A stretch of 15,625 bases of DNA from a virus (taxonomy: Duplodnaviria; Heunggongvirae; Uroviricota; Caudoviricetes): the IMG/VR virus record IMGVR_UViG_3300030294_000003; one strand, 5' to 3'. Made by a program: the position numbers and the translations under genes. Under the pieces are notes generated by a model. The model was not told the origin of the DNA. It saw nothing but the letters and a program-made list of their open reading frames with translations, and searched no databases. The number at the start of each line of letters is the position of its first letter. The stretch's first letter is position 1. Shown here piece after piece: positions 541 through 13,293 of this stretch.

Positions 541-597
541 AAGTTTTAAATGTTAATATTATTTGTTTATATTGTTTAATTACTTTTAATTGATACA

Positions 598-642
598 CAA
601 AGATAGGTAATTATCCTATAATTTGCTAATGGAATTTGTTAA
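598..642 (-). promoter_or_regulatory. Promoter module M2
   Basis: TTAACAAATTCCATT...TATCTTTG, 37-nt spacing. Confidence 0.8.
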
Positions 643-655
643 ATAAAATTGTATT

Positions 656-1264
656 TTATCTTAGTTCCGTTGGTATTTCTTTTTTCCATTCAGAAATTTT
701 ATCTTGAATTAGGTTTATTTCTTTTTCCAAATTTTTAATAGCCAATTTTGCAGCTTCATAGGCTTCATAACTGTATTCTTTTTCTAAACGAGGTTCTACA
801 TCGGCATCAACAAATTTGTTGTCAGAATCAATCATAATTAAGTCAAAAAACGATTTTCTAACATACGTACAATAAGCGGTTGTAAATTTGTGTTCCCCAC
901 CTGAATAATAGCCACCGTTAACACATATTGAAATTTCCAAAGAGGTGTAATCACTTTTTTTATCAAGAAAAAACCATTGTAACCCTTTTCTGTTTTCAAA
1001 TGTTAAGCCAAATTTTTCAGTAAATTCATTGAAAAATTCATCAAAAAATTTAGTTCTATTACCACCCATTACAAACAATTTTTTCCCAATTAAACGGGAT
1101 TTATTTTCCAATAGAAAAGACTGAAAGTTTTTAACCATTTCATTCATTTCTTTACGTGCATTAATAATTCTTATAGCCTGTTCTTTTCTGTATTTGGCAC
1201 GTTCATCAGATTCAAATTTTGCTAATGCTTTATACTCTTCAATTTCTTTGTCAGTCAGTTTCAT
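656..1264 (-). CDS. Hypothetical protein, 202 aa, helical/coiled-coil termini
   Basis: ORF track; own promoter M3 and AT-rich leader. Confidence 0.85.
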   Translation of the reverse strand: MKLTDKEIEEYKALAKFESDERAKYRKEQAIRIINARKEMNEMVKNFQSFLLENKSRLIGKKLFVMGGNRTKFFDEFFNEFTEKFGLTFENRKGLQWFFLDKKSDYTSLEISICVNGGYYSGGEHKFTTAYCTYVRKSFFDLIMIDSDNKFVDADVEPRLEKEYSYEAYEAAKLAIKNLEKEINLIQDKISEWKKEIPTELR

Positions 1265-1302
1265 AAGGCGTTTATTTTAGTTCGTTTTAATTAATCGATA
1301 TA

Positions 1303-1347
1303 CAAAGATAATGTATTTCGTTGGTATTCGAAAATGGGATTTGTTAA
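1303..1347 (-). promoter_or_regulatory. Promoter module M3
   Basis: TTAACAAATCCCATTTT...TATCTTTG, 37-nt spacing. Confidence 0.8.
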
Positions 1348-1799
1348 ATTAATTTTATTAACTCCTGAACAATTACAGAATAAGGAACGTAAAAAGTACC
1401 AATTTCGTTCATTCTTTCAGCTTCACAATTAATCAAATACTGTGCATTCTCCTTTGTTAAATTTTCATACTTTTGGCTGTAATATGGATTAAAAAATTGA
1501 CCGTTGTAACGTTTGGTATCAATTGTTAAATCGTAACGAAATTTATTTTGTCGTACCCATACACCGAAATATGAAAAACTTGAACAATCCCCATCACATG
1601 TTTCGAAATGTCCGTATTTGTTTTCTAAAATACTATCAATTGTTAAAAATGGTAGTTGTTCTAAAAAACGTTGTTCAATCATTTTTTTGTTGTAGTCCTT
1701 ACAAAATTTTTCGTATTCAGATACACCCATCAATTTTTCCAATTTATTTTGGGCATCGATATACAAATCACTTTCAATCCAAACTTCGCTATCATTCAT
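1344..1799 (-). CDS. Hypothetical protein, 151 aa
   Basis: ORF track; promoter M4; stop TAA lies inside the TTAAC of M3. Confidence 0.85.
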   Translation of the reverse strand: MNDSEVWIESDLYIDAQNKLEKLMGVSEYEKFCKDYNKKMIEQRFLEQLPFLTIDSILENKYGHFETCDGDCSSFSYFGVWVRQNKFRYDLTIDTKRYNGQFFNPYYSQKYENLTKENAQYLINCEAERMNEIGTFYVPYSVIVQELIKLI

Positions 1800-1829
1800 A
1801 ATCTTTTGATTTATTAATTAATTGATATA

Positions 1830-1874
1830 CAAATGTAGTGAAATTACCAATACAAAGCAAATGTAATTTGTTAA
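1830..1874 (-). promoter_or_regulatory. Promoter module M4
   Basis: TTAACAAATTACATTTG...TACATTTG, 37-nt spacing. Confidence 0.8.
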
Positions 1875-1901
1875 AAAATGATCTAAATAAAACATATTCT
1901 T

Positions 1902-1946
1902 TTAACAAATTCGGGTTTGAAATACCAATGAAAAGCACTATCTTTG
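1902..1946 (+). promoter_or_regulatory. Promoter module P2 (drives ncRNA copy 2)
   Basis: TTAACAAATTCGGGTTTG-N19-TATCTTTG, 37-nt spacing. Confidence 0.8.
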
Positions 1947-1964
1947 TATCATAAAATAAGAGTA

Positions 1965-2004
1965 GAGAGGTTGGTAGTCGTAACAAAACTAAAGTATTTT
2001 CTCC
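1965..2004 (+). ncRNA. Putative small RNA, copy 2 (conserved core)
   Basis: GAGAG GTTGG TAGT cgtaacaaa ACTA AAGTATTTTCTCC; TAG/CTA is a compensatory change relative to CAG/CTG. Confidence 0.6.
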
Positions 2005-2041
2005 GTTATATAGAATAAAATAATGTTAACTGAAGTTAAAA

Positions 2042-2072
2042 AATCCCTTAACATTTATTGTGTTAAAGGATT
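2042..2072. terminator. Hairpin, likely bidirectional terminator
   Basis: AATCCCTTAACA-TTTATTG-TGTTAAAGGATT, between convergent units. Confidence 0.5.
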
Positions 2073-2078
2073 CTAAAA

Positions 2079-2153
2079 TTAATTCCACTTATTTTCTTGT
2101 TTGCTTATTTTTTTGTAAGGTTGTTTATCCTTATATGTTAATGTTTTTGCCAT
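2079..2153 (-). CDS. Possible basic micropeptide, 24 aa (MAKTLTYKDKQPYKKISKQENKWN)
   Basis: Translated by hand; follows 2175-2345 with an A-rich leader; very short. Confidence 0.3.
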   Translation of the reverse strand: MAKTLTYKDKQPYKKISKQENKWN

Positions 2154-2174
2154 TGGTATTTTATTTAAATTATT

Positions 2175-2345
2175 TTACTTTAAATCTGATATATCAAACC
2201 TTGTTACTTTTCCCTCAATCGTATATATTAATCCATTCCAAGTTAAAAATTCATAACCAGCAATTTTTGCCACTTCAATTGCCTTATCAATATGCCCCCA
2301 CATCGATGGGCGTAGCGAACTGTTAAAAATATATTTCCAACTCAT
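2175..2345 (-). CDS. Hypothetical protein, 56 aa (MSWKYIFNSSLRPSMWGH...GYEFLTWNGLIY...)
   Basis: Translated by hand; starts 6 nt after the stop of 2352-2675. Confidence 0.75.
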   Translation of the reverse strand: MSWKYIFNSSLRPSMWGHIDKAIEVAKIAGYEFLTWNGLIYTIEGKVTRFDISDLK

Positions 2346-2351
2346 ATTATT

Positions 2352-2675
2352 TTAATTAAATTGTTGGTTATAACGTTTTATTTTTTCTTTATATAATTCT
2401 TTCAAATAACGTGAATGATTACGACGTGTAACGATTTTAACATCGTAACCGATTGATTTTAATTCTTTCAATAGGTCTGCATATTCTGATGGTTTTGCAT
2501 TACATGTAAAGTCGTTTATATCCCACCTACAAACAGAATGTTGCTCGACACGCATATAAGAACCTACATAATCTTCCCCCTCAATTTGGTACGGAAAAAC
2601 GGCAATTACTTCTTTATTCCCGTATTTAAATTTCCTGAACTGAACTTCAATTAAAATATTTTTATCTGTTTCCAT
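2352..2675 (-). CDS. Hypothetical protein, 107 aa, resembles a phage family with V.FRK..VIAVFP..SY...QH..A.P.EY..LL.EL..IGY
   Basis: ORF track; promoter M5; family resemblance is from memory, function unknown. Confidence 0.85.
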   Translation of the reverse strand: METDKNILIEVQFRKFKYGNKEVIAVFPYQIEGEDYVGSYMRVEQHSVCRWDINDFTCNAKPSEYADLLKELKSIGYDVKIVTRRNHSRYLKELYKEKIKRYNQQFN

Positions 2676-2705
2676 AACGATTGATTATTTATTAATTTCT
2701 TATCA

Positions 2706-2750
2706 CAAAGATAGTTTAAATTGTCTATTCGTGAAAATGGAATTTGTTAA
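2706..2750 (-). promoter_or_regulatory. Promoter module M5
   Basis: TTAACAAATTCCATTTTCACGAA...TATCTTTG, 37-nt spacing. Confidence 0.8.
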
Positions 2751-3133
2751 TATTTGCTTACGTTTATACCTCTTTCGTGTTGAATTTCGCAAAGTAAATA
2801 ATCTGCATTCATTTCGTTTGGAACACTACAATAGCACTCAAATATTTTTTGCTCTTTATTCGTAACAACTGTTAAATTTCCTTCACAATCGGTTTTAATA
2901 CATTCAATTTTTTCACCGTTGTAAGTACTACCAACATATTTTTGTGGTATTAACGTTTGTTCACTATTCGCTTTTATGTAATAGATATACATATCCAACT
3001 CATTCAATTTACTGTAATCAATTTCATTATCATCAAACCACATATATAATGTATTGATGTCTATTGCTTCTTTAACATTTATTAAATGTTTGTAAGCTTC
3101 AACCAATTCTTCATCTATATAAACTTTTTTCAT
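2747..3133 (-). CDS. Hypothetical protein, 128 aa
   Basis: ORF track; promoter M6; stop inside the TTAAC of M5. Confidence 0.85.
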   Translation of the reverse strand: MKKVYIDEELVEAYKHLINVKEAIDINTLYMWFDDNEIDYSKLNELDMYIYYIKANSEQTLIPQKYVGSTYNGEKIECIKTDCEGNLTVVTNKEQKIFECYCSVPNEMNADYLLCEIQHERGINVSKY

Positions 3134-3165
3134 TGTGTTTGATTTATTTAATTATTTAATGTTCA

Positions 3166-3210
3166 CAAATGTACTATATTTAAACCATTCGTGAAAATGG
3201 AATTTGTTAA
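3166..3210 (-). promoter_or_regulatory. Promoter module M6
   Basis: TTAACAAATTCCATTTTCACGAA...TACATTTG, 37-nt spacing. Confidence 0.8.
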
Positions 3211-3211
3211 A

Positions 3212-3472
3212 TTATGATTCTAAATCGGAAAAATATTCGACCACATCATCGTAAAACTTTTCAGTAATTCCACCAAATGTATAAAGATGTTCATTAACCT
3301 TAACTTCCATTAAATTGATACCCGCTTTTTCAATAATTGTATTCATTCCTTGAGGTCTTAAATAGAATACATTTTTATTTAATGCATACATTAGAATAAT
3401 TTCATCGATTAAAAATAATAAATGTTCAACAACTTGTTTTTCACTTGAATTGGTAGGGTTAATATTTTTCAT
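3212..3472 (-). CDS. Hypothetical protein, 86 aa
   Basis: ORF track; tightly linked to 3478-3762. Confidence 0.8.
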   Translation of the reverse strand: MKNINPTNSSEKQVVEHLLFLIDEIILMYALNKNVFYLRPQGMNTIIEKAGINLMEVKVNEHLYTFGGITEKFYDDVVEYFSDLES

Positions 3473-3477
3473 AATGA

Positions 3478-3762
3478 TTAATATTTAAGAGTTTCTTTGT
3501 TAAATTGTTCAACTGAAATTATTTCAATTTGTGCTCTGCTTGCATCATAAGACATTCCACTATTATCTTTATACTTTTCACTACCATCTTCTTTTAATTG
3601 CTTGTGAGCATATTGAATTGCTTTTTTGGCTTGTGAAATAGTATTATAATACAAAATATAAGAATAAAACATTCCATTTCTGTTAAAAATAGAACCACCC
3701 AAATTATTAACAAGTTTGTGATTCCCGTTAATTTGACCTGTCACTCTAATAATTGCTTTCAT
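3478..3762 (-). CDS. Hypothetical protein, 94 aa
   Basis: ORF track; promoter M7. Confidence 0.8.
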   Translation of the reverse strand: MKAIIRVTGQINGNHKLVNNLGGSIFNRNGMFYSYILYYNTISQAKKAIQYAHKQLKEDGSEKYKDNSGMSYDASRAQIEIISVEQFNKETLKY

Positions 3763-3788
3763 AAAAACTGTTTGTTTTAATTATGATA

Positions 3789-3833
3789 CAAAGATAATAT
3801 TTTCACTTCATTCCTTAAAATGAAATATGTTAA
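3789..3833 (-). promoter_or_regulatory. Promoter module M7
   Basis: TTAACATATTTCATTTT...TATCTTTG, 37-nt spacing. Confidence 0.8.
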
Positions 3834-4000
3834 TATTTAAAAAAGTGTGCTGTTAATTTCATTGTCGTTGGTACGTTAACTTCTTTAAAACGTTCCTTTG
3901 CAGCCTTACATGTTTTGGATTGTTCAGTACTACATATATAACAACCATCTAAAAAAATATCAATTTTGTAGCAACCTGTTTGACTGTTATATTTTTTCAT
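3830..4000 (-). CDS. Hypothetical Cys-containing protein, 56 aa (MKKYNSQTGCYKIDIFLDGCYICSTEQSKTCKAAK...)
   Basis: Translated by hand; promoter M8; stop inside the TTAAC of M7. Confidence 0.75.
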   Translation of the reverse strand: MKKYNSQTGCYKIDIFLDGCYICSTEQSKTCKAAKERFKEVNVPTTMKLTAHFFKY

Positions 4001-4033
4001 TTTATTTTTGATTAATTAATTTTGATTACCTTA

Positions 4034-4078
4034 CAAAGATACGGGAAATATTTCATTCCCGCAACTCTTATTTGTTAA
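4034..4078 (-). promoter_or_regulatory. Promoter module M8 (hairpin in spacer)
   Basis: TTAACAAATAAGAGTTGCGGGAA...TTCCCGTATCTTTG, 37-nt spacing. Confidence 0.75.
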
Positions 4079-4218
4079 AAATTCCGTTTTATTGGTATGT
4101 CATTTAATTTAACATCGTCAAAATAAAATGCTTTTTCGTAAGCTGCAATTTCAGCTTTTTCACAGTCTTTAACATACCGTTTATGACCATCGCCCCAAGT
4201 AATTAAATTTGTTTCCAT
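4075..4218 (-). CDS. Hypothetical protein, 47 aa (METNLITWGDGHKRYVKDCEK...)
   Basis: Translated by hand; stop inside the TTAAC of M8. Confidence 0.7.
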   Translation of the reverse strand: METNLITWGDGHKRYVKDCEKAEIAAYEKAFYFDDVKLNDIPIKRNF

Positions 4219-4230
4219 AAGTTAAGGGTT

Positions 4231-4425
4231 TTATTTGTAATATTTGTCCGCTGTAAATTGCCTATCAAAACATACCATACTTCGATTACTGTTTTCATAT
4301 CTATTAACAATTGATATTGCTTCTTCTCTTGTACAACCTCTTCTCAAAATTTCACGTCGACGACTTACTTTAAACACTCTGTAAACCTTATACGTTCCAA
4401 TGTATTTTTTTGCCTCTACTCTCAT
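4231..4425 (-). CDS. Basic hypothetical protein, 64 aa (YKVYR...G.T.EEA motif)
   Basis: ORF track; part of the M9 operon. Confidence 0.75.
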   Translation of the reverse strand: MRVEAKKYIGTYKVYRVFKVSRRREILRRGCTREEAISIVNRYENSNRSMVCFDRQFTADKYYK

Positions 4426-4432
4426 AATGATT

Positions 4433-4555
4433 TTATTTACAAATAATGTTACTAAAATGGTTTGAAAAATCCGCTTGTGAAATACCTATAATGAATAAAA
4501 CTAAAACCACCAATGCGATAACTAAATTTATATTAACTTTTTTTAGTGTTTTCAT
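4433..4555 (-). CDS. Small membrane/signal-peptide-like protein, 40 aa (MKTLKKVNINLVIALVVLVLFIIGISQA...)
   Basis: Translated by hand; basic N-terminus followed by a hydrophobic stretch. Confidence 0.65.
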   Translation of the reverse strand: MKTLKKVNINLVIALVVLVLFIIGISQADFSNHFSNIICK

Positions 4556-4564
4556 TTGTTTCTA

Positions 4565-4672
4565 TTATAGGTTGCTTGCTATGAATAAACCGATTGAATA
4601 ATAAGCTAAACAGGCAAATACCAATTTTTCAGCTTTTGAACGTTTTTTTACGAATGCTATAACTTTTTTCAT
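4565..4672 (-). CDS. Small membrane peptide, 35 aa (MKKVIAFVKKRSKAEKLVFACLAYYSIGLFIASNL)
   Basis: Translated by hand; first ORF after M9, leader AAACGCCTTATG. Confidence 0.65.
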   Translation of the reverse strand: MKKVIAFVKKRSKAEKLVFACLAYYSIGLFIASNL

Positions 4673-4712
4673 AAGGCGTTTGTTTAATTTTGTTTTCTTT
4701 AATTTCAATACG

Positions 4713-4757
4713 TAAAAGTAATGAAAAATACCCATTAACGAAAATGGAATTTGTTAA
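4713..4757 (-). promoter_or_regulatory. Promoter module M9
   Basis: TTAACAAATTCCATTTT...TACTTTTAC, 37-nt spacing. Confidence 0.75.
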
Positions 4758-4930
4758 AGTTTATCAACTGCATTTATAAAATCTGCAACCTCAATTCCAC
4801 CGATACAATAGTCACCGTTTGGTAAATAAATGTATTGACTGAAATGTTCTTTCGTATGGTTAACAAGTTGAAAAACTTTGTGGTTGTCAATCATATAATT
4901 GAAAATCGCTTTTTTAAGTTCTAAGTTCAT
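4754..4930 (-). CDS. Hypothetical protein, 58 aa (MNLELKKAIFNYMIDNH...GDYCIGGIEVADFINAVDKL)
   Basis: Translated by hand; stop inside the TTAAC of M9. Confidence 0.75.
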   Translation of the reverse strand: MNLELKKAIFNYMIDNHKVFQLVNHTKEHFSQYIYLPNGDYCIGGIEVADFINAVDKL

Positions 4931-4951
4931 AGCCGTATATTGTTTATTTGA

Positions 4952-5167
4952 TTAATAATCAATTGATTTAGAATTATAATAATTAACTTCTAACCAATTT
5001 TCAACCTCTTTATTAAAATTTTCTAATTCATCATTATCTTCTGCATCAGGAATGTTAACGCCTTCTAATTCGCCTAAAAAAATGTTTTTTTCCCAAATAT
5101 CAATTCCGCCATCAAATTGTTTACAAATAAATTCATCCACCCCAACAAAAACACTAATTGTATTCAT
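4952..5167 (-). CDS. Acidic hypothetical protein, 71 aa
   Basis: ORF track; promoter M10; 17 D/E vs 4 K/R. Confidence 0.8.
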   Translation of the reverse strand: MNTISVFVGVDEFICKQFDGGIDIWEKNIFLGELEGVNIPDAEDNDELENFNKEVENWLEVNYYNSKSIDY

Positions 5168-5206
5168 AACTTTATTTTTTAAATTGTTTTATTTAATTTC
5201 AATATG

Positions 5207-5251
5207 TAAAAGTAAACAAAAGCATCTACAACTGCAAATGCTTTTTGTTAA
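5207..5251 (-). promoter_or_regulatory. Promoter module M10 (hairpin in spacer)
   Basis: TTAACAAAAAGCATTTG-N20-TACTTTTAC, 37-nt spacing. Confidence 0.75.
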
Positions 5252-5266
5252 ATTAAATCAGATTTT

Positions 5267-5797
5267 TTATCTGAATGGATTGTAATTAACATCTTCCAAC
5301 GATTTAATAGCTTCAACATCCAATTGTAATTCACTAAAGTAATTCCAGCCATTGGATAACCCTTTTTCACATAGTTCAATAAATGGGTCGTATAATGGTT
5401 TTAAATCTTCAAATTTTGAACCGCAATACATTACGTTAGCTTTTAAATCAACTATTGCCATCATTCTGATATAACCATAAAAATATTGAATTTCATTATT
5501 ATCAAATAATTCAATGTTTTCATTAACAAATTTGCAACCTTTGTTTATTGATTCTATACCGTTAAAATCAAATGCCATTGTTTTGATATGGTTATCATCG
5601 TTGTAATAACGAACCAACAAAGCGTAATAAGTTGATTTTTTTGGTGCGCACAATTTACCTGTTTTCGGGTCAATAGTTTGTGTAACGTGCCTGTAACCCT
5701 TTTTAGGGCTAAATTCCATAGAATCATACAAAGTGGTTTTTAATCGAAATCCCCAAGGGTAATTCTCAACTGCAATTTTTTCACTTGTCTTAATCAT
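5267..5797 (-). CDS. Hypothetical protein, 176 aa, resembles a phage family with YPWGF..E...KG.R...QT..PKKSTY
   Basis: ORF track; promoter M11; family resemblance is from memory. Confidence 0.85.
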   Translation of the reverse strand: MIKTSEKIAVENYPWGFRLKTTLYDSMEFSPKKGYRHVTQTIDPKTGKLCAPKKSTYYALLVRYYNDDNHIKTMAFDFNGIESINKGCKFVNENIELFDNNEIQYFYGYIRMMAIVDLKANVMYCGSKFEDLKPLYDPFIELCEKGLSNGWNYFSELQLDVEAIKSLEDVNYNPFR

Positions 5798-5850
5798 AAT
5801 AGTATATTTTTTAAAAGCGTTTAATTATTTCGTTTTAATTAATTGATATA

Positions 5851-5895
5851 CAAAAATAGTGTTTAACATTGATATATCAAAATGGAATTTGTTAA
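5851..5895 (-). promoter_or_regulatory. Promoter module M11
   Basis: TTAACAAATTCCATTTT...GTTAAACACTATTTTTG, 37-nt spacing. Confidence 0.8.
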
Positions 5896-6113
5896 TAAAA
5901 ACGAATATTTTCTCTAATATATTTTTCAACAATTAGTTTATTTGTTAAATTACATTTACCATTGGTATATGGTTCAATACCTTTTTCAATTATAATCAAA
6001 CGACCAATTTCGCCACATCTTAAAATTCCATTTTGTAAAAACCAATAGTATTTTGTAGTTGTTACAAAAACAAAATCGTTTAGTTGAACTTTAATAAGCT
6101 TTTGTGTTAACAT
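5892..6113 (-). CDS. Hypothetical protein, 73 aa
   Basis: ORF track; stop inside the TTAAC of M11. Confidence 0.75.
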   Translation of the reverse strand: MLTQKLIKVQLNDFVFVTTTKYYWFLQNGILRCGEIGRLIIIEKGIEPYTNGKCNLTNKLIVEKYIRENIRFY

Positions 6114-6125
6114 ATTTTTTATTTG

Positions 6126-6419
6126 TTAAATAAAAATTAATTTTATTGCTGCTTTCATAGCCGTTTCAATGTTATCATCAACACAATTGTTTGGATATAA
6201 CTCAAAACTTTCGGTTAATGGTAAAATACGTACACCATCAGAATCTAAATTAACATTTGAATTATTAACTAAATAGTTGTAGTTTACAAAGACTTTAAAA
6301 TGTAATTCATGTAACATAGAATCGGTTAAACATTTTTCCTTAGAAGTTATTCCGTAATGGTTAACTACTACTTTTAAACCGTTTACAAGTAAGTCAAATT
6401 GAGCTTTTGGATATTTCAT
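6126..6419 (-). CDS. Hypothetical protein, 97 aa
   Basis: ORF track; promoter M12; stop inside an orphan TTTAACAAAT half-site. Confidence 0.8.
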   Translation of the reverse strand: MKYPKAQFDLLVNGLKVVVNHYGITSKEKCLTDSMLHELHFKVFVNYNYLVNNSNVNLDSDGVRILPLTESFELYPNNCVDDNIETAMKAAIKLIFI

Positions 6420-6447
6420 TTTGTTTTCGTTTAATAAATTTATAATA

Positions 6448-6492
6448 CAAAAGTAAGCTTTTAACCAACACGAAACAAATGCTTTTTGTTAA
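6448..6492 (-). promoter_or_regulatory. Promoter module M12
   Basis: TTAACAAAAAGCATTTG-N20-TACTTTTG, 37-nt spacing. Confidence 0.8.
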
Positions 6493-6509
6493 AAAACAAA
6501 TTAATTATT

Positions 6510-6554
6510 TTAACAAATTCCATTTTACTAATCCATTATATTATATTACTTTTA
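6510..6554 (+). promoter_or_regulatory. Promoter module P3
   Basis: TTAACAAATTCCATTTT...TACTTTTAC, 37-nt spacing. Confidence 0.75.
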
Positions 6555-6580
6555 CATCGAAATCAAAACAATATAGCATC

Positions 6581-6934
6581 ATGGAAAAGAAATCTATTTT
6601 CACAATTGAAGTTTATAACATGACAGGTGGAAAGTTCAATAGTGTTACAAACACGTTTAGCAGTGCTTTAAACGCTTTAGAAAACATTCTTTGTAACCTA
6701 CAAGCGCAAAGTAAATTTGAGCATTATCAGGTCTTTATTCAAGAGTCAAAATTTGATAAAAACGGATTGTTGGTTATGAAAACAAAAGTTAACCGTTTTA
6801 ATTTGAATGTTTTTTCAGAATTTGAATTAACAAATGATAGTCATCAATTTCATTTTATTGCAATGGATTTAATTGAAAAAATGAATAAAAGAATTGAATT
6901 GAATGATGGAATAAAATGGGATTTGTTAAAATAA
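6581..6934 (+). CDS. Hypothetical protein, 117 aa (start revised to MEKKSIF)
   Basis: The track start at 6479 lies upstream of promoter P3; ATG 6581 follows the leader. Confidence 0.75.
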   Translation: MEKKSIFTIEVYNMTGGKFNSVTNTFSSALNALENILCNLQAQSKFEHYQVFIQESKFDKNGLLVMKTKVNRFNLNVFSEFELTNDSHQFHFIAMDLIEKMNKRIELNDGIKWDLLK

Positions 6935-6947
6935 AAAATAAATTAAT

Positions 6948-6992
6948 TTAACAAAAAGGGTTTGCAGAAGTAAGCCCTTTTCTGTATCTTTG
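6948..6992 (+). promoter_or_regulatory. Promoter module P4 (terminator-like hairpin in spacer; drives ncRNA copy 3)
   Basis: TTAACAAAAAGGGTTTG-N20-TATCTTTG, 37-nt spacing. Confidence 0.8.
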
Positions 6993-7010
6993 TATTACAA
7001 TAATGGATGA

Positions 7011-7051
7011 GAGAGGTTGACAGGATGCACAAATCCTGAAGTATGGTCTCC
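7011..7051 (+). ncRNA. Putative small RNA, copy 3 (conserved core)
   Basis: GAGAG GTTGA CAGGAT gcacaa ATCCTG AAGTATGGTCTCC; 6-bp hairpin. Confidence 0.6.
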
Positions 7052-7092
7052 TTGACATCTAAACTTTTTTTGTTAAAAAAACTTAATAAAAA

Positions 7093-7124
7093 CTTAACCC
7101 ATATTTCTATCAATATAGGTTAAG
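7093..7124. terminator. Hairpin, likely bidirectional terminator
   Basis: CTTAACCCATATT-TCTATC-AATATAGGTTAAG, between ncRNA copy 3 and the convergent ORF 7150-7509. Confidence 0.5.
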
Positions 7125-7149
7125 CAAAGTCATTTTATGTCAAGTTTAG

Positions 7150-7509
7150 TTAAATAAAGCTATCAATTATTCTTTTTATTTCATTTTTATTTTGTTTAAT
7201 CATTTCGTCACTTTCCTGAAATTTAGCACTTAATTTAATAGTTGGGTCAGCATTTTTAACACTGTTAACTAATTTGTTTTTTGATGCTACATCGAAAAAT
7301 TTACTAACAAATCTTTCCTGTTCATAAATTAACGTTTCAAGTCTTACAAGTTCAAAAATTTTGAGTAGGTATTTTTTAACATCTATTTCCTTTGTGTAAT
7401 TCATCGACCGTGGGGAAATTCCGTAATTGAAAATACGGCTACCTTCGTCCGTTGTAACTTCAAAACCAATGGTTTTAAAATCGTTGTCTTTAACTAAAAT
7501 TGCTTTCAT
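7150..7509 (-). CDS. Hypothetical protein, 119 aa
   Basis: ORF track; promoter M13. Confidence 0.85.
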   Translation of the reverse strand: MKAILVKDNDFKTIGFEVTTDEGSRIFNYGISPRSMNYTKEIDVKKYLLKIFELVRLETLIYEQERFVSKFFDVASKNKLVNSVKNADPTIKLSAKFQESDEMIKQNKNEIKRIIDSFI

Positions 7510-7557
7510 AACTTATAAGTTTTTAATGAATTGATTTATTTCCTTTTAATTATACAA

Positions 7558-7602
7558 CAAAGATAATCTTTTGAATCCATTCGTGAAAATGGAATTTGTT
7601 AA
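7558..7602 (-). promoter_or_regulatory. Promoter module M13
   Basis: TTAACAAATTCCATTTTCACGAA...TATCTTTG, 37-nt spacing. Confidence 0.8.
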
Positions 7603-7619
7603 AAAACAAAGTAATTTAT

Positions 7620-7664
7620 TTAACAAATTCCATTTCGGTATATGGTTGAAATGAATTACTTTTA
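7620..7664 (+). promoter_or_regulatory. Promoter module P5
   Basis: TTAACAAATTCCATTTCGGTATATGG...TACTTTTAC, 37-nt spacing. Confidence 0.75.
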
Positions 7665-7693
7665 CATATCAATTTAATTAAAACAAACAAAAT

Positions 7694-7894
7694 ATGAAAA
7701 CGTTAACAGTATTGCAGCAAATAAATATTTTATTGAAGCATGCCAATAGAAACGGTTTAGAAATTAAATTTTTTAACGTTCACGACAATTGTGTATTTGC
7801 TAATTTATATAATCCTGAAAAAGATGTTTATTCTTATCAAACGGTTTTTTGTGTTATTGATGATTGTGAATATAAATTTACTTTAATACCTTAA
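7694..7894 (+). CDS. Hypothetical protein, 66 aa
   Basis: ORF track; promoter P5. Confidence 0.8.
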   Translation: MKTLTVLQQINILLKHANRNGLEIKFFNVHDNCVFANLYNPEKDVYSYQTVFCVIDDCEYKFTLIP

Positions 7895-7910
7895 TTAAAA
7901 AAAATTGGTT

Positions 7911-8099
7911 ATGAAAACAATTATAATAAACGAATGGTTAAAATTCACATACCGTGAAGATAGAAGTGTTAAATTTGAACCTGCATACCGCAATGGGGCA
8001 TATATTAACGTTTTTATACATTCAGATGAATGTGAAAAATTCTTAAAGGAAAATGATATTAATTATCAAATCAGTAACAAAAACAATATTGATAAATGA
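7911..8099 (+). CDS. Hypothetical protein, 62 aa (start revised to ATG 7911)
   Basis: ORF track 7905 uses TTG; ATG 7911 is in frame; stop overlaps the next start (ATGA). Confidence 0.75.
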   Translation: MKTIIINEWLKFTYREDRSVKFEPAYRNGAYINVFIHSDECEKFLKENDINYQISNKNNIDK

Positions 8100-8371
8100 A
8101 AAACTATGTACGTTTTTATGAAATGTCAACAGGTAAATGGGTTGATGGAAAAATGAATTGGGATATGAAATATCCTATTGAGGGTTGTGGTAGTGATTCT
8201 GTAATGTATTACGATGGGCGTTTGAATTTATCATCAATATGTTATCAGGCAAGACAAAGAATCATTCAAATGAATGCAGTTAATAGAATAGTAGGCTTTA
8301 AAGTCTATAAAAACGGTAATGAAGTTTATTCAACCGTTCCAACCGCAAAAAATTGCTTAAAATATGAATAA
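8096..8371 (+). CDS. Hypothetical protein, 91 aa (YVRFY..STG...GSDSV..YDGR motif)
   Basis: ORF track; translationally coupled to the previous ORF. Confidence 0.85.
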   Translation: MKNYVRFYEMSTGKWVDGKMNWDMKYPIEGCGSDSVMYYDGRLNLSSICYQARQRIIQMNAVNRIVGFKVYKNGNEVYSTVPTAKNCLKYE

Positions 8372-8372
8372 G

Positions 8373-8388
8373 ATACTCGAATGAGTAT
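8373..8388. repeat. Palindrome ATACTC-GAAT-GAGTAT, copy 1
   Basis: Recurs at 9240, 13579 (inverted) and 14184. Confidence 0.75.
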
Positions 8389-8401
8389 GTAAATAATTAC
8401 T

Positions 8402-8446
8402 TTAACATATTCCATTTGTACCAACGATTAAAATATATTACTTTTA
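8402..8446 (+). promoter_or_regulatory. Promoter module P6
   Basis: TTAACATATTCCATTTG-N20-TACTTTTAC, 37-nt spacing. Confidence 0.75.
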
Positions 8447-8471
8447 CATATCAATTTAAAGCAACAATGTT

Positions 8472-8696
8472 ATGAAAAAAGACTTTTTAAAAATAGGGTT
8501 ACGATTTTATGTTGAGGATGAAATAAACACTTTTAGCGTTGTTTCCTTTGATTCAGAATCTATGTACATTTATTCCGAATTATTAAAAGAGAATATTGAA
8601 AAACCTTTTAAGGTCTCTCACTTTTATAAACAAGTCTCTGATGGTTTTTTAACTATTTCTACAGACAAGTCTCTGATGTTTATTCAACAATTTTAA
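8472..8696 (+). CDS. Hypothetical protein, 74 aa
   Basis: ORF track; promoter P6. Confidence 0.8.
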   Translation: MKKDFLKIGLRFYVEDEINTFSVVSFDSESMYIYSELLKENIEKPFKVSHFYKQVSDGFLTISTDKSLMFIQQF

Positions 8697-8721
8697 ATTC
8701 ACAAATAAATAATAAATAGTT

Positions 8722-9051
8722 ATGACAGATTTAACAATTGCCCAACAGTGGGAAGCGGTGAATAAAATGAATTTTTTTGAGATTGAAGTTGTAGACCAAC
8801 GAACCAACGAACAGGATTATATCATTTTTAACATTGATATTGATTCAAAAGTTGATGGAACGCCTGTTTTTAGAGCCGAACACGTTGCACTTAGTGAAGC
8901 AGAAGAAAAAAGTCCATTGGTAGCTTTTTGTTATTCTGAGATTGATGAAAACTTCTCGTTGGATCAAAATCTAGGTTCATTGATGGATGAATGTGTTGAT
9001 GCTATAATCAATAGTGAATTTTATGAATTTCCAAAAGATGAAGAAGAATAA
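8722..9051 (+). CDS. Strongly acidic hypothetical protein, 109 aa
   Basis: ORF track; 27 D/E vs 6 K/R. Confidence 0.85.
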   Translation: MTDLTIAQQWEAVNKMNFFEIEVVDQRTNEQDYIIFNIDIDSKVDGTPVFRAEHVALSEAEEKSPLVAFCYSEIDENFSLDQNLGSLMDECVDAIINSEFYEFPKDEEE

Positions 9052-9059
9052 TTAATAAT

Positions 9060-9233
9060 ATGGTACAAACAACTAATAATCATCTAACAGTATACAAATA
9101 CCTATCAGAAACCGCTGATAGGAGATGTAGAAAATATAAAGAACTTGATAAACAATTGGATAAACTTAGTGAAAAATATGGTAAAGAATCCAAAGAAGTA
9201 AACGATTTTTTTAATCAATTTATTATCCTATAA
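9060..9233 (+). CDS. Hypothetical protein, 57 aa (MVQTTNNHLTVYKYLSETADRRCRKYKELDKQLDKL...)
   Basis: Translated by hand; starts 8 nt after the previous stop. Confidence 0.7.
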   Translation: MVQTTNNHLTVYKYLSETADRRCRKYKELDKQLDKLSEKYGKESKEVNDFFNQFIIL

Positions 9234-9239
9234 TTAACA

Positions 9240-9255
9240 ATACTCGAATGAGTAT
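9240..9255. repeat. Palindrome ATACTC-GAAT-GAGTAT, copy 2
   Basis: Identical to 8373-8388. Confidence 0.75.
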
Positions 9256-9265
9256 CTAACATCCT

Positions 9266-9310
9266 TTAACAAAAATGGTTTGTGAAAATGAATCCTTTTC
9301 TTTACTTTTG
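9266..9310 (+). promoter_or_regulatory. Promoter module P7
   Basis: TTAACAAAAATGGTTTG-N20-TACTTTTG, 37-nt spacing. Confidence 0.8.
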
Positions 9311-9339
9311 CATATACAAATTAATAAAACAAACGCTTT

Positions 9340-9762
9340 ATGAAAAGGCAATTTAAAATTATAACAAGTGTAGCTACACACATTTGTACTATCAACAAAA
9401 AGAATGACATCTTTTTTGATGTATTTGAAAGGGAAATAGAAAATATGGGTAATGCTGATGAAAAATTTATTGTTGAAAATATGGATGGTAAAATACTATT
9501 CACTGATACAGATGTTAAAGAATGGGAAAATGATGGTGGTGTTTATATTTGTCGCTTTTGTGGTAAGCGTATTGAAAGTGAACACGATGTATATGTTGAG
9601 GATGGTGCAAGTGAGTGTCATTGTGAGGACTGCCATCCGATTCTATTCCCAAATGATGATGTATGGCAAGCTTTATATAAAAAGTACAACATCGACAGCG
9701 AAACAGGCGAAGAGCGTAATAACTTTTATGGTGAATATTATTATTGGACTACTGCACCGTAA
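9340..9762 (+). CDS. Hypothetical protein, 140 aa, putative Zn ribbon (CRFC...CEDC)
   Basis: ORF track; two CxxC motifs; promoter P7. Confidence 0.85.
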   Translation: MKRQFKIITSVATHICTINKKNDIFFDVFEREIENMGNADEKFIVENMDGKILFTDTDVKEWENDGGVYICRFCGKRIESEHDVYVEDGASECHCEDCHPILFPNDDVWQALYKKYNIDSETGEERNNFYGEYYYWTTAP

Positions 9763-9767
9763 TTTAT

Positions 9768-9812
9768 TTAACAAATTCTATTTCGATATATCATTGTTAA
9801 AGCTTATCTTTG
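9768..9812 (+). promoter_or_regulatory. Promoter module P8
   Basis: TTAACAAATTCTATTTC...GTTAAAGCTTATCTTTG, 37-nt spacing. Confidence 0.8.
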
Positions 9813-9849
9813 TATAGTAATATAATTCAAATAAATAAACCAATCAGTT

Positions 9850-10110
9850 ATGTCAGAAAAAGAAAAATATAATTTTTTTCTCGATGGTGATTTATCCCAA
9901 ATGTCATTTCAAAGGACATTCTTAAATAATCGTGGAATCAGTACAGAACAAAACAATGTCTACCCATGTTTAAGGCAATGTGATGTTAAAAATGCTTTAA
10001 CTTTAATATGGGAACAAAGTTGTGATGGTTGGTGGCATTACAAAAAAAAGTATGTTGAATTAGAAATTTGTACCGCTGAAGAATATAACAGCAAATTATC
10101 AAGATGGTAA
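9850..10110 (+). CDS. Hypothetical protein, 86 aa
   Basis: ORF track; promoter P8. Confidence 0.8.
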   Translation: MSEKEKYNFFLDGDLSQMSFQRTFLNNRGISTEQNNVYPCLRQCDVKNALTLIWEQSCDGWWHYKKKYVELEICTAEEYNSKLSRW

Positions 10111-10123
10111 AATATTATTTTAT

Positions 10124-10168
10124 TTAACAAATTCTATTTTCATACATCAATGTTAAAGCTTATCTTTG
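10124..10168 (+). promoter_or_regulatory. Promoter module P9
   Basis: TTAACAAATTCTATTTT...GTTAAAGCTTATCTTTG, 37-nt spacing. Confidence 0.8.
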
Positions 10169-10202
10169 TCATATCAATTTAATTAATTCAAATAAACATA
10201 TT

Positions 10203-10361
10203 ATGTCAGAAAGAGAATGCGCAATAAAAGTAGGTGAAGCAGTTTTACAACTTCTTAATCTTGAAATAAATAAAGTTGGTTTAATACCTACAGTGTGGGG
10301 TGATAAGACCGTTGAGGGGTTAGGATTCACTATTATGGGAATTGTAGAAATAAATAAATAA
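10203..10361 (+). CDS. Hypothetical protein, 52 aa (...GLIPTVWGDKTVEGLG...)
   Basis: Translated by hand; first ORF after P9. Confidence 0.75.
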   Translation: MSERECAIKVGEAVLQLLNLEINKVGLIPTVWGDKTVEGLGFTIMGIVEINK

Positions 10362-10367
10362 TGTTTT

Positions 10368-10670
10368 ATGAAAAATCCGTATAAAGTAAGCTATCAAAAA
10401 CATTGGTCTGAAGATGGTACAGTGTATACCCAACGTGTTAAAATTTCACGTGAAGATTATTTAACATTTTGTGAAGAAATGGATTTGGAATTTATTAACA
10501 AATTTCCATTTAAAAAACATTATTGTCATACCGATTCTGATACAATCTACATGAGGTCAAAAGATACCAATGCAAAGGTCGTTTACTTAAAATCAACTGA
10601 AACACGTTTTTTTTGTTTTATGATGATGATTAATCTAAAAGATAGAAACACTTATTTAGTTATAGCTTAA
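10368..10670 (+). CDS. Hypothetical protein, 100 aa
   Basis: ORF track. Confidence 0.75.
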   Translation: MKNPYKVSYQKHWSEDGTVYTQRVKISREDYLTFCEEMDLEFINKFPFKKHYCHTDSDTIYMRSKDTNAKVVYLKSTETRFFCFMMMINLKDRNTYLVIA

Positions 10671-10685
10671 ACTAATAATATATTT

Positions 10686-10967
10686 ATGAAAAAACTTAAA
10701 ATTACAAAAGGCGAATGGTTTATAAGTGGTGATAAATATCCAACTATACAATCAAAAAATACAAATGAAAATATCGTTGTAACATATCCTACAATTGCTA
10801 CAATAAATTCAACGTTTATTGATGAAATAGAATATAAAGCAAATGCAAAACTAATTGCTGCATCGCCAAAAATGCTTGCGGCACTTGAAGTGTTAATGGA
10901 AAATTCAAGTAATCTACATGAGTTCCAAAAAATTTATATTCAGGAAGCTCTTGATGCAGCACTTTAA
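10686..10967 (+). CDS. Phage protein of the widespread 'H/ITPGPW...ANARLIAAAPELL' family, 93 aa, function unknown
   Basis: ITKGEW near the N-terminus and ANAKLIAASPKMLAAL match the motif as I recall it. Confidence 0.8.
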   Translation: MKKLKITKGEWFISGDKYPTIQSKNTNENIVVTYPTIATINSTFIDEIEYKANAKLIAASPKMLAALEVLMENSSNLHEFQKIYIQEALDAAL

Positions 10968-11017
10968 TTTTAATTAATTATATAGTCCAAATTGATAATT
11001 GTTAAAATATAAATATT

Positions 11018-11158
11018 ATGATTGATTTTAATTGCCTTTCAGAAAATAGCGAAGTTGTTCTTTTATTAAAACAGAGAGAAGAATTAGATAAAAAGATAAA
11101 TGAATTAGATGAATTTGCATTGCTACTATATGAAATTGCTAAGTTGAACGAAGAATAA
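11018..11158 (+). CDS. Hypothetical coiled-coil peptide, 46 aa (MIDFNCLSENSEVVLLLKQREELDKKINELD...)
   Basis: Translated by hand; heptad-like pattern. Confidence 0.65.
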   Translation: MIDFNCLSENSEVVLLLKQREELDKKINELDEFALLLYEIAKLNEE

Positions 11159-11185
11159 AAAACAAGTAAATAATAATAATATATT

Positions 11186-11464
11186 ATGAGCGAACAAGAA
11201 ATTAAATATAAACAAATGCTCAACAACGTGGCATTGTTAACAGATTATAATGACCACACAGAAGCTCGTATAGCCATTGCAAAGTTCTTTGGTATGCGTA
11301 ATAGGATTGATGATTTAGAATCATTACAACGTCAACAAAATAGGCTTGGGTATATGACAGAAGACCTATTGAAAGAACGTGCCGAAATAACAAAGACAAT
11401 ATACAATCGTTTGATTTTTACTTGTGGTATTGAAATAGCTAAAGAAGTAATGTCAAAACTTTAA
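11186..11464 (+). CDS. Hypothetical protein, 92 aa (LTDYNDHTEA motif)
   Basis: ORF track; stop inside the TTAAC of P10. Confidence 0.85.
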   Translation: MSEQEIKYKQMLNNVALLTDYNDHTEARIAIAKFFGMRNRIDDLESLQRQQNRLGYMTEDLLKERAEITKTIYNRLIFTCGIEIAKEVMSKL

Positions 11465-11505
11465 CAAATTACATTTTAGTATATCACTGTTAAAGCGTAT
11501 CTTTG
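11461..11505 (+). promoter_or_regulatory. Promoter module P10
   Basis: TTAACAAATTACATTTT...GTTAAAGCGTATCTTTG, 37-nt spacing. Confidence 0.8.
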
Positions 11506-11538
11506 TACTATCAAAATAATTAAACAAAACAAGTTATT

Positions 11539-11700
11539 ATGAAAAATAAAGCACACGTATTTCAACACAGAACTTCGGGTCTACAAATGTTCGTTTATCA
11601 TCAACCTTCAGAAGATTTAGCAAAATCTGAGTTATATGGTATTGTAGCAAATAGTAGCGATTGGATTTATTTAGGACAAAAAACGGCACAAGATGCATAA
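11539..11700 (+). CDS. Hypothetical protein, 53 aa (MKNKAHVFQHRTSGLQMFVYH...)
   Basis: Translated by hand; sole ORF between P10 and P11. Confidence 0.7.
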   Translation: MKNKAHVFQHRTSGLQMFVYHQPSEDLAKSELYGIVANSSDWIYLGQKTAQDA

Positions 11701-11715
11701 AATAAACATTATAAA

Positions 11716-11760
11716 TTAACAAATTCTATTTTAGAATGTCGTTGTTAAACCGTATCTTTA
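11716..11760 (+). promoter_or_regulatory. Promoter module P11
   Basis: TTAACAAATTCTATTTT...GTTAAACCGTATCTTTAC, 37-nt spacing. Confidence 0.75.
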
Positions 11761-11799
11761 CACTGTAATTAAATTAAACAAATAAAAACATAAAATATC

Positions 11800-12021
11800 A
11801 TGGCAAAGAAAAATCTTATTACATTAGCAAAAGGGTTGGATTTTACAACCGAATCAGAATATTTTGATTATCTTATTGATTCATATCTCTATGGTAATTT
11901 CAATCAATGTAAAAGACTTTTCAATGATATGAAAAAAGAAGCCCAAAAGAAATTTATTAAGTATGTTGATAATTCATATACTAATAAAGACATTATGGAT
12001 TTTTATTTCAACCTATTGTAA
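11800..12021 (+). CDS. Hypothetical protein, 73 aa
   Basis: ORF track; promoter P11; TAATG overlap with the next gene. Confidence 0.85.
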   Translation: MAKKNLITLAKGLDFTTESEYFDYLIDSYLYGNFNQCKRLFNDMKKEAQKKFIKYVDNSYTNKDIMDFYFNLL

Positions 12022-12317
12022 TGAAAAACGTAATTATAATTGGTGCTGGCGGTACGTATGGAACATCTACAACCATTGCACAACGCATTATAGAAGCACG
12101 AGAACAGGGTATTGAAGTTGTGGAGTATAAACCAAACAGCGAACAAAGTAAAATATTAGAACTTGCAGACCAACTAAACAGCTTAACAGAGCGTGAAAAC
12201 AAAGCTATGAGAGAAGCAGAACCTTTTATACTTCAGTCAATTCCACACGATGAAATACCATTCTATCCAAATAAAAAAATCAAAGGTTATCAACAGCCTT
12301 ATAAATTCCACAAATAA
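12021..12317 (+). CDS. Hypothetical protein, 98 aa, Rossmann-like N-terminal glycine motif
   Basis: ORF track; MKNVIIIGAGGTYG. Confidence 0.8.
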   Translation: MKNVIIIGAGGTYGTSTTIAQRIIEAREQGIEVVEYKPNSEQSKILELADQLNSLTERENKAMREAEPFILQSIPHDEIPFYPNKKIKGYQQPYKFHK

Positions 12318-12318
12318 T

Positions 12319-12537
12319 ATGGGGTTAAGATGTGAACAACACGTTGAGGATGGTTATAGTTACAACAGGTTTACAGACACACAAATGAGACCTATTTTTA
12401 GACAATGTAAATACAATGCAAAATACAAAGTCAAAGCAGAGAATACAAAAGGTTATGTAAGCGAAATGAACGTTTGTACAAAACACAAAAACAATTTAAT
12501 TAAACGATTTAAAATAATTGATATTCAAATAATTTAA
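12319..12537 (+). CDS. Hypothetical Cys/His protein, 72 aa (start revised to MGLRCEQH)
   Basis: In-frame ATG 1 nt after the previous stop; CxxH...CxxH; stop inside the TTAAC of P12. Confidence 0.75.
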   Translation: MGLRCEQHVEDGYSYNRFTDTQMRPIFRQCKYNAKYKVKAENTKGYVSEMNVCTKHKNNLIKRFKIIDIQII

Positions 12538-12578
12538 CAAATTCCATTTCCGTATGTCAACCTTATTCCGTATCTTTG
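12534..12578 (+). promoter_or_regulatory. Promoter module P12 (drives ncRNA copy 4)
   Basis: TTAACAAATTCCATTTC...TATCTTTG, 37-nt spacing. Confidence 0.8.
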
Positions 12579-12594
12579 TATCATAATAAAGGTA

Positions 12595-12632
12595 GAGAGG
12601 TTGGCAGACAATAAATCTGGAGTATATTCTCC
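12595..12632 (+). ncRNA. Putative small RNA, copy 4 (conserved core)
   Basis: GAGAG GTTGG CAGA caataaa TCTG GAGTATATTCTCC. Confidence 0.6.
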
Positions 12633-12680
12633 GTTGGATACTATATATCAATTGTTAAAAAAATAATTATTGAACCAAAA

Positions 12681-12731
12681 GGAGTATAATCTTCGGTCTA
12701 TTAAATATTTTAACATCCGCCAACATCTCTC
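12681..12731 (-). ncRNA. Putative small RNA, copy 5 (conserved core, faces copy 4)
   Basis: Minus strand GAGAG AT GTTGG CGG atgttaaaatatttaataga CCG AAGATTATACTCC; CGG/CCG is a compensatory change. Confidence 0.55.
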
Positions 12732-12747
12732 GAATCATATGATATGG

Positions 12748-12792
12748 CAAAGGTAGTCAAAACAATTCATATAACCAAATATTTTCAGTTAA
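12748..12792 (-). promoter_or_regulatory. Promoter module M14 (drives ncRNA copy 5)
   Basis: TTAACTGAAAATATTTG-N20-TACCTTTG, 37-nt spacing. Confidence 0.75.
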
Positions 12793-12820
12793 AAGATCTT
12801 AATAAAAATTTATTGTAATT

Positions 12821-12865
12821 TTAACAAATTCTATTTCCACAATTGAAGTTAATACCGTACTTTTG
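12821..12865 (+). promoter_or_regulatory. Promoter module P13
   Basis: TTAACAAATTCTATTTC...TACTTTTG, 37-nt spacing. Confidence 0.8.
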
Positions 12866-12908
12866 TAAGGTAATCAAATAAAAGTAATTAAAACAAAACA
12901 TTATAGTT

Positions 12909-13157
12909 ATGGCAACAAATAAAACAACATTAGTAAACGAATTACAAGGGGCATTAGACCGCTTTAACAGAAACCTTGAACCATCAGGTAGATGTGTACA
13001 AATTCAGGCTAGAAACGGCTACATAGCGTTGGATATGTATAGTATTAAAACAGGCAAATGTATTGACTTCTATACGTCAACAGATACCAACAAACAAATG
13101 TTAAATTTACTTTACGCTTTAAGTAAAGCAATTGAACTTGTTAATAATCCAATCTAA
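12909..13157 (+). CDS. Hypothetical protein, 82 aa
   Basis: ORF track; promoter P13. Confidence 0.8.
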   Translation: MATNKTTLVNELQGALDRFNRNLEPSGRCVQIQARNGYIALDMYSIKTGKCIDFYTSTDTNKQMLNLLYALSKAIELVNNPI

Positions 13158-13170
13158 AATAAAATATATT

Positions 13171-13293
13171 ATGGAAATAGAAGAAATTGTTAAAATTATT
13201 GATGGTATTAAACCATTGTCATTTTTTAACCAAAATGAAAAAGATGTATTTCAACTTGCACTTGATTTGGTGAAAGCAGCAATTGAGGGTTAA
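13171..13293 (+). CDS. Hypothetical protein, 40 aa (MEIEEIVKIIDGIKPLSFFNQNEKDVFQLALDLVKAAIEG)
   Basis: Translated by hand. Confidence 0.65.
   Translation: MEIEEIVKIIDGIKPLSFFNQNEKDVFQLALDLVKAAIEG

Follow-up and report, generated by a model that had tools for sequence, protein, structure and literature searches.

The 15,625-nucleotide stretch analysed here (IMG/VR virus record IMGVR_UViG_3300030294_000003, Caudoviricetes), referred to throughout as the window, carries about 45 short open reading frames (ORFs) and 29 copies of a repeated module that opens with the pentamer TTAAC and is predicted to be a promoter. In many places, the TAA within this TTAAC is also the stop codon of the gene lying upstream, and it is this overlap that is considered here. 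The G+C content of the window is 27%, and genes are found on the minus strand at 656-6419 and 7150-7509 and on the plus strand elsewhere. The phage is large and uncultured, of a Bacteroidota-type host, and the same phage is found across many bog and fen metagenomes in contigs of up to ~250-260 kilobases (kb).

The window was joined to two flanking contigs identical over their overlaps, resulting in a reconstruction of 34,180 base pairs (bp) for which the public gene calls were used. In total, the sequence read comprises ~45 kb of the window's phage (genome ~250 kb) and ~40 kb of its relatives. A Pfam search of ten window ORFs or proteins returned zero families, precomputed Pfam matches on the called genes were nearly absent, and Rfam and tRNA scans of the window gave nothing relevant. 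A megablast search of the phage collection with the complete window yielded no match, and an exact 17-mer scan of IMG/VR produced 72 single matches, all coding or chance, and no module array.

Anatomy of the module

In general, the module consists of TTAAC, eight further conserved bases, TTT(G/C/T), a spacer and TA--TTT(G/A), arranged in a rigid geometry in which the distance from the first T of TTAAC to the TA is exactly 37 nucleotides (nt). The 34-kb reconstruction holds 50 copies, and those in the window are given here by the position of their first T.

43-14881, both strands: 29 modules, each with TTAAC and distal box, a 20-nt spacer and TA--TTT(G/A)
Minus strand, modules 1-7: 87, 642, 1347, 1874, 2750, 3210, 3833
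Minus strand, modules 8-14: 4078, 4757, 5251, 5895, 6492, 7602, 12792
Plus strand, modules 1-8: 104, 1902, 6510, 6948, 7620, 8402, 9266, 9768
Plus strand, modules 9-15: 10124, 11461, 11716, 12534, 12821, 14370, 14837

TTAAC, the TA (offsets 37-38) and the following TTT (offsets 41-43) are invariant in 50 of 50 copies. G is present at offset 44 in 80% of them and at the middle positions 39-40 in none, and the upstream TTT at offsets 13-15, found in 94-100% of copies, is followed by G, T or C and lies exactly 20 nt from the downstream element. The housekeeping promoters of Bacteroidetes have the consensus -33 TTTG and -7 TANNTTTG (PMC6847099; PMC2483708; PMC9723704), with TAHHTTTG as a refined form of the -7 element (PMC6847099), and the modules fit this refined form because G is absent from both middle positions in all copies. 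With a -7 element of the type TAnnTTTG and a -33 TTTG ~19-20 nt upstream, the module has the features of a Bacteroidota sigma-A promoter, and it is predicted to be a reiterated early promoter of this host type. A scan with the sigma-70 consensus was set aside, as it is uninformative for Bacteroidota promoters.

When T-12 of the -7 element is placed at offset 37, TTAAC lies at about -49 to -45 and its TAA at -48 to -46. TTAAC thus forms the 5' end of a distal box of 17 nt (TTAACAAATTCCATTT), whose extent is about -49 to -33 and whose last part is the -33 element. The box may act as an UP-like element or as a site for a regulator. ATG start codons follow 67-98 nt after TTAAC, and the sequence before them is A-rich and without Shine-Dalgarno motifs, as expected for the host phylum. 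In total, TTAAC occurs 162 times against 85 in shuffled sequence, or about twice as often. It is just as invariant in the 14 modules that lack an ORF immediately upstream, i.e., back-to-back pairs and promoters of RNAs, and in relatives the distal box is also found as TTAAG or TTCAC. The TAA would therefore be a feature of the promoter, and its use as a stop codon secondary.

Strong hairpins (-12 to -17 kcal/mol) with a T-run after them are found between the -33 and -7 elements in 8-10 of the 50 copies, about a fifth, and three such modules in the window are flagged as terminator-like; in the other modules, the hairpin is weak or absent. Paralogous modules beside unrelated genes have spacers alike at up to 20 of 21 positions, so module orthology is undecidable from spacer identity alone. 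A subfamily of modules (e.g., window 9768, 10124, 11461, 11716, 14837 and 5895) has the common spacer GATATATCA(A/T)TGTTAAA(C/G), in which TGTTAAA is the inverted repeat of the box TTTAACA, 28 nt apart. Such likeness points to duplicated modules, to gene conversion or to a palindromic site for a regulator.

Stop codons on the box TAA

A tandem junction is defined here as a module with a same-strand ORF directly upstream, and stop positions are counted relative to the first T of TTAAC. The initial annotation described eight ORFs that stop on the TAA of a TTAAC opening a full module, corresponding to 8 of the 18 tandem junctions of the window in exact register, as well as one ORF ending on an orphan half-site at 6121-6129 and two near misses (3212 and 14835). 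All of these are present as described, and a further ORF, 7150-7509, had been overlooked.

1303-1799, minus strand: ORF 1344-1799, 151 amino acids (aa), stop is the TAA of TTAAC (1347-1343) opening module 1347-1303
2706-3133, minus strand: ORF 2747-3133, 128 aa, stop in the box of module 2750-2706
3789-4000, minus strand: ORF 3830-4000, 56 aa, stop in the box of module 3833-3789
4034-4218, minus strand: ORF 4075-4218, 47 aa, stop in the box of module 4078-4034
4713-4930, minus strand: ORF 4754-4930, 58 aa, stop in the box of module 4757-4713
5851-6113, minus strand: ORF 5892-6113, 73 aa, stop in the box of module 5895-5851
11186-11505, plus strand: ORF 11186-11464, 92 aa, stop in the box of module 11461-11505
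12319-12578, plus strand: ORF 12319-12537, 72 aa, stop in the box of module 12534-12578
6111-6419, minus strand: ORF 6126-6419, 97 aa, end on the orphan half-site TTAACAAAT (6129-6121)
7149-7509, minus strand: ORF 7150-7509, 119 aa, end in TTAAC (7149-7153), module absent
3166-3472, minus strand: ORF 3212-3472, 86 aa, stop TAA-T-TTAAC (position -4) before module 3210-3166
14446-14881, plus strand: ORF 14446-14835, 129 aa, stop TAA-T-TTAAC (position -4) before module 14837-14881

The modules behind these ORFs are not all alike. Module 4078-4034 has a terminator-like hairpin that starts 11 nt past the stop, and module 12534-12578 precedes a small-RNA-like element and not an ORF. At the orphan half-site TTAACAAAT, the next ATG (6113) follows 10 nt on, and the -7 box and promoter are absent.

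The 34-kb reconstruction contains 36 tandem junctions, 16 of which (~45%) have the stop at +1; two more modules with a spacing 1 or 3 nt shorter are also in register, giving 18 of 38. The remaining stops among the 36 are at -4 (three), -7 to -10 (four), -15 to -20 (eleven) and -33/-35 (two), and none of the 36 junctions has a stop beyond +1 according to the public gene calls. It could be proposed that such overlaps arise by chance in AT-rich sequence with TAA as the usual stop, since TAA accounts for 78 of 86 stops. In line with this, plain TTAAC is found at 5 of 68 module-free stops, which is close to the expectation from base composition and no enrichment. Yet, 16 of 36 stops at one of 37 positions is far from uniform (binomial p ~4e-16), the frame of the box TAA is used by 21 of 36 ORFs against one third expected (p = 0.002), and relatives show the same register. 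A chance origin is ruled out by these counts and is given practically no weight; the register is real and non-random. In addition, longer TTAACAAA remnants are found at gene ends above chance, two in the window's phage and several in relatives.

The register is also seen junction by junction in relatives. For example, the orthologues of ORF 1344-1799 in L080 and L084 stop on the box TAA even though the box there reads TTAAG, and those of ORF 3830-4000 in L080, L083, L084 and L089 all terminate on TATTAAC, the box in L089 being reduced to TTAACAA ahead of the next ATG. In L083, the orthologue of ORF 4754-4930 (59 aa) has TTTAAC at its end, and ATTATG of the next gene comes immediately after, with the module absent. 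Conversely, the L080 orthologue of ORF 7150-7509, which in the window has no module, ends on the box of a full one. Between the F20 and F21 orthologues of L080 (L080:13336-13400), TTAAC lies 5 nt closer to a normally spaced -33/-7 pair (offset 32, not 37), where it serves as a stop and is misplaced as a promoter box.

C-termini of homologues

According to the initial annotation, incoming genes acquire their stop codon from the site. The C-termini of homologues speak against this, as they agree within about one residue, even in distant homologues. Orthologues of the window proteins F2, F0, F16, F20 and F13 in the diverged relatives L080/L083, L084 and L089 end within 0-1 residue of them, with lengths of 151/151/146 aa for F2, 56 aa in five lineages for F0, 58/59 for F16, 85/86 for F20 and 62/63 for F13. 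Three homologues of the 128-aa protein, read at the DNA level and ~60% identical, are all 128 aa long and end ...NVSKY on TATTAAC, with differing module bodies or downstream genes. A homologue of a neighbouring 252-aa protein, at 42% identity, terminates one residue sooner.

The same is seen in a 265-aa protein just past the window end (L078:11646-12443, corresponding to 16091-16888 in window numbering). Many of its 121 homologues are similar in length (~250-300 aa) and nearly all alignments finish at query residues ~255-264; therefore, no conserved sequence is missing from the 265-aa protein. A subset of homologues of ~330-370 aa has an extra C-terminal stretch. Among the proteins examined, no truncated, extended or junction-derived C-termini were found. 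As a family, the 265-aa protein has no Pfam match, and its 121 homologues, 41 of them below 1e-30 and some with the C-terminal extension of ~80 aa, come from a library of 1.8 billion proteins; the family is undescribed and fairly widespread.

Rearrangement boundaries between relatives

The relatives have a common backbone of genes (F7, F8, F9, F10, F0, F1, F2, F11, F19-21 and F12), and the small genes in between differ. Using L080, L083 and L084, which are 89-100% identical in shared blocks, twelve rearrangement boundaries were placed to within a few bases.

Within the distal box (offsets 0, 5-6 and 10-16): 3 of 12
Between back-to-back modules, 6-8 nt outside the box: 1 of 12
Just 3' of the -7 box: 2 of 12
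5-17 nt ahead of a start codon: 4 of 12, three at the 3' end of a module and one without a module
Inside the 3' ends of ORFs: 2 of 12, one of them the F25/F13 chimera

Nine of the twelve boundaries are in or adjoining a module, and the boundaries thus concentrate in modules, including the box, but not at one position. The earlier reading is supported in part. The module does mark a boundary between exchangeable gene units, as the genes found between shared flanks differ among relatives and three boundaries fall in the TTAAC box. A single crossover at TTAAC is not supported, since the offsets within the box vary and the majority of the other boundaries follow the -7 box, precede start codons or fall in ORFs.

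Promoters and ORFs are separable from each other. L080 and L083 are 95-99.7% identical over shared blocks, with 99.7% over F9 plus the module downstream of it, and their divergence begins ~8 nt before the next ATG. The same F9, with an identical 5' untranslated region, is preceded by a plain module in L080 and by a hairpin module in L083. L080 module 9225 and window module 3210 are equal at 19 of 21 spacer positions, and neither of the window neighbour genes is found in L080; at the syntenic F2-F11 junction, the spacers are unrelated. Orphan remnants of the box are left after gene ends, with 5, 9 or 12 nt of the box kept. Finally, L080 F25 carries the last ~14 codons of F13 (L080:3384-3398 versus L083:2155-2339), following an in-frame deletion across a 10-nt microhomology (GAAGATGCTA / GAATATGCTA) by which F25 lost its end and F13 most of its length. 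Here, short-homology deletion has clearly created a chimeric ORF.

The boundaries also bear on an integron-like origin, in which TTAAC is the crossover site of a site-specific recombinase and inserted cassettes take their stop from the site. As in integron attC sites, the stop codon lies within a conserved motif at the 3' boundary of the cassette, and about half of the boxes (26 of 50) fit the core RYYYAAC, with GTTRRRY also in the spacer in 9 of 50. An indel between L084 and L080 spans exactly box to box, which together with the three in-box boundaries speaks for such a system. In addition, genes retain their terminal TTAAC when the downstream partner changes, although retention of the TAA is trivial, given that every gene needs a stop. 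On the other hand, the in-box boundaries are not at one bond and 9 of 12 are elsewhere, the second core is absent in 41 of 50 modules and there is at most a single repeat of 7-8 bp; neither attI nor the two-pair inverted-repeat architecture of attC (R''/L''-L'/R') is seen. Unlike integron cassettes, each unit has its own promoter, from which its ORF can separate, and both strands carry units; the C-termini are conserved and do not stem from the junction. Precomputed Pfam matches on the genes of the retrieved loci (~85 kb) include no IntI and no other integrase or resolvase. The array does not belong with integrons, as attC structure, a fixed crossover and promoterless cassettes are all lacking, and an origin of this kind is considered highly improbable.

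Probable gene packing against a reiterated promoter

The register is probably explained, with an estimated probability of about 0.7, by the packing of genes against a reiterated promoter, which would also serve as a recombination linker and whose box TAA is reused as a stop. Compaction had been named in the initial annotation as the alternative to a cassette site, and it is the explanation that fits the register best: across the 37 gene junctions that lack a module, the median spacer is ~10 nt, and four of them are ATGA overlaps. Nearly every unit of one to three genes in the variable region of this ~250-kb phage would have its own promoter, and ORFs would be shortened up to the point at which they meet the first base under constraint in the element that follows. 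Of the possible stops, the box TAA would be the last to keep the promoter clear of coding sequence, and it may serve as the stop at ~45% of tandem junctions because the box always holds a TAA and packing is tight.

How a gene arrives at this position can be envisaged in two steps. A short-homology deletion between the (T)TAA of the gene itself and the TTAA of the box would produce an in-frame fusion, and box-to-box exchanges would then keep it, giving the register without a frame lottery. The repeated modules would act as linkers for homology-driven gene shuffling, with crossovers in the box, at the -7 box and just ahead of start codons, making dedicated site-specific recombination at TTAAC unnecessary. 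At hairpin modules, a stop further upstream would let the terminator fold free of the terminating ribosome. Such an explanation is ordinary in kind and new in this lineage.

Two observations weigh against this explanation. First, the box makes up ~1.6% of the sequence yet holds 3 of 12 boundaries, a strong enrichment versus random placement, and a factor recognising the box is therefore possible. If a DNA-binding or recombination protein encoded by the phage recognised the distal box (TTAACAAATTCCATTT) and promoted exchange from box to box, which is regarded as a long shot, the array would be a dedicated gene-cassette system of jumbo phages, with the box as promoter, stop codon and recombination site at once. 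Second, hairpin-type modules lean towards a stop 16-20 nt upstream and have the box stop in 1 of 8 cases versus 15 of 28 for the others (Fisher p = 0.05), a trend that is not significant (p = 0.13) with the counter-example at 22334.

This trend touches on a further possibility, namely that the register itself is selected, with a stop at the box barring read-through ribosomes from the promoter or hairpin, or fixing the distance between termination and hairpin. No ORF runs past the box TAA in 36-38 junctions, in the eight modules with strong hairpins the stop precedes the stem by 10 nt or more, in most of them by 16-23 nt, and the register is kept across lineages at 60-76% protein identity. Yet, the association between hairpins and upstream stops is weak, more than half of the junctions are at other positions with no obvious pattern, and no mechanism connects an mRNA-bound ribosome to a DNA promoter element. 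Selection on the register as such is considered unlikely, ranking below gene packing against the promoter.

Other elements in the window

A small-RNA-like element with the core GAGAG(A)GGTTG(G/A)CAG ... GGAGTAT-TCTCC is found in five copies, at 150-260, 1950-2060, 6995-7100, 12585-12640 (plus strand) and 12680-12745 (minus strand). The copies begin ~10 nt past the -7 box of a module and have no ORF and no Rfam match. The element is kept in relatives, and the L080 copy behind module 11708 is equal at 24 of the first 25 nt.

The palindrome TACTC-N4-GAGTA is present at 8374-8387, 9241-9254, 13580-13593 and 14185-14198, just past gene ends where the next gene is without the main module, and also after the L080 orthologue of ORF 8096-8371. 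Furthermore, two TGTCAAAAA...TTTTTGACA palindromes and the perfect 20-bp palindrome GGGGTTAAAATTTTAACCCC (13303-13325, 13798-13817 and 13820-13841) sit in and before a long module-free non-coding stretch, 13787-14360, and may be terminators or operator-like sites.

Relation to known systems and significance

The closest known system is the PeSL (promoter-early stem-loop) cassette of T4-type phages (Arbiol et al. 2010, PMC2839356; Comeau et al. 2014, PMC4122927), and the window array appears to be its analogue on a different promoter type. As described for PeSLs, the AT-rich region before the -35 element holds stop codons of upstream genes, stem-loops lie between the promoter boxes, and crossovers fall between -10 and the ATG or in the AT-rich region (PMC2839356). 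Both systems place reiterated host-type early promoters among small orphan genes of hyperplastic or variable regions, with the stop of the upstream gene in the AT-rich part before the promoter, and in both, indels or replacements between close relatives are bounded by cassettes. Stem-loops or terminators between the promoter boxes are frequent in PeSLs, and strong hairpins occupy this place in about a fifth of the copies here. The window array differs in its Bacteroidota sigma-A type -33/-7 promoter without Shine-Dalgarno sequences, in having no sequence homology to PeSLs, and in the extra invariant 17-nt distal box, the rigid 37-nt geometry and the TAA in register at ~45% of junctions.

Two further comparisons can be made. 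In compact operons with ATGA or TAATG overlaps, an ORF also stops inside the next functional element and packing piles up one register; there, the next element is a start codon, whereas in the window array it is a promoter box ~70-100 nt before the start. The early promoters of T4 with their UP-like upstream elements are reportedly present in many copies, have an extended consensus to about -50 and drive early genes, with a sigma specificity different from that of the window array. To our knowledge, that description does not include the use of the distal element as a stop codon.

When arrays of this type are annotated, ORFs that finish inside the next promoter are to be expected, and the overlap should not be mistaken for an integron signature. 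A single repeated promoter would here provide transcription starts, sometimes a terminator, a stop for the gene before it and stretches of homology for exchange, which shows how dozens of orphan early genes may be packed and reshuffled in a large Bacteroidota phage. The PeSL idea, documented so far in T4-type phages of Proteobacteria, would thereby reach an unrelated promoter type and host phylum.

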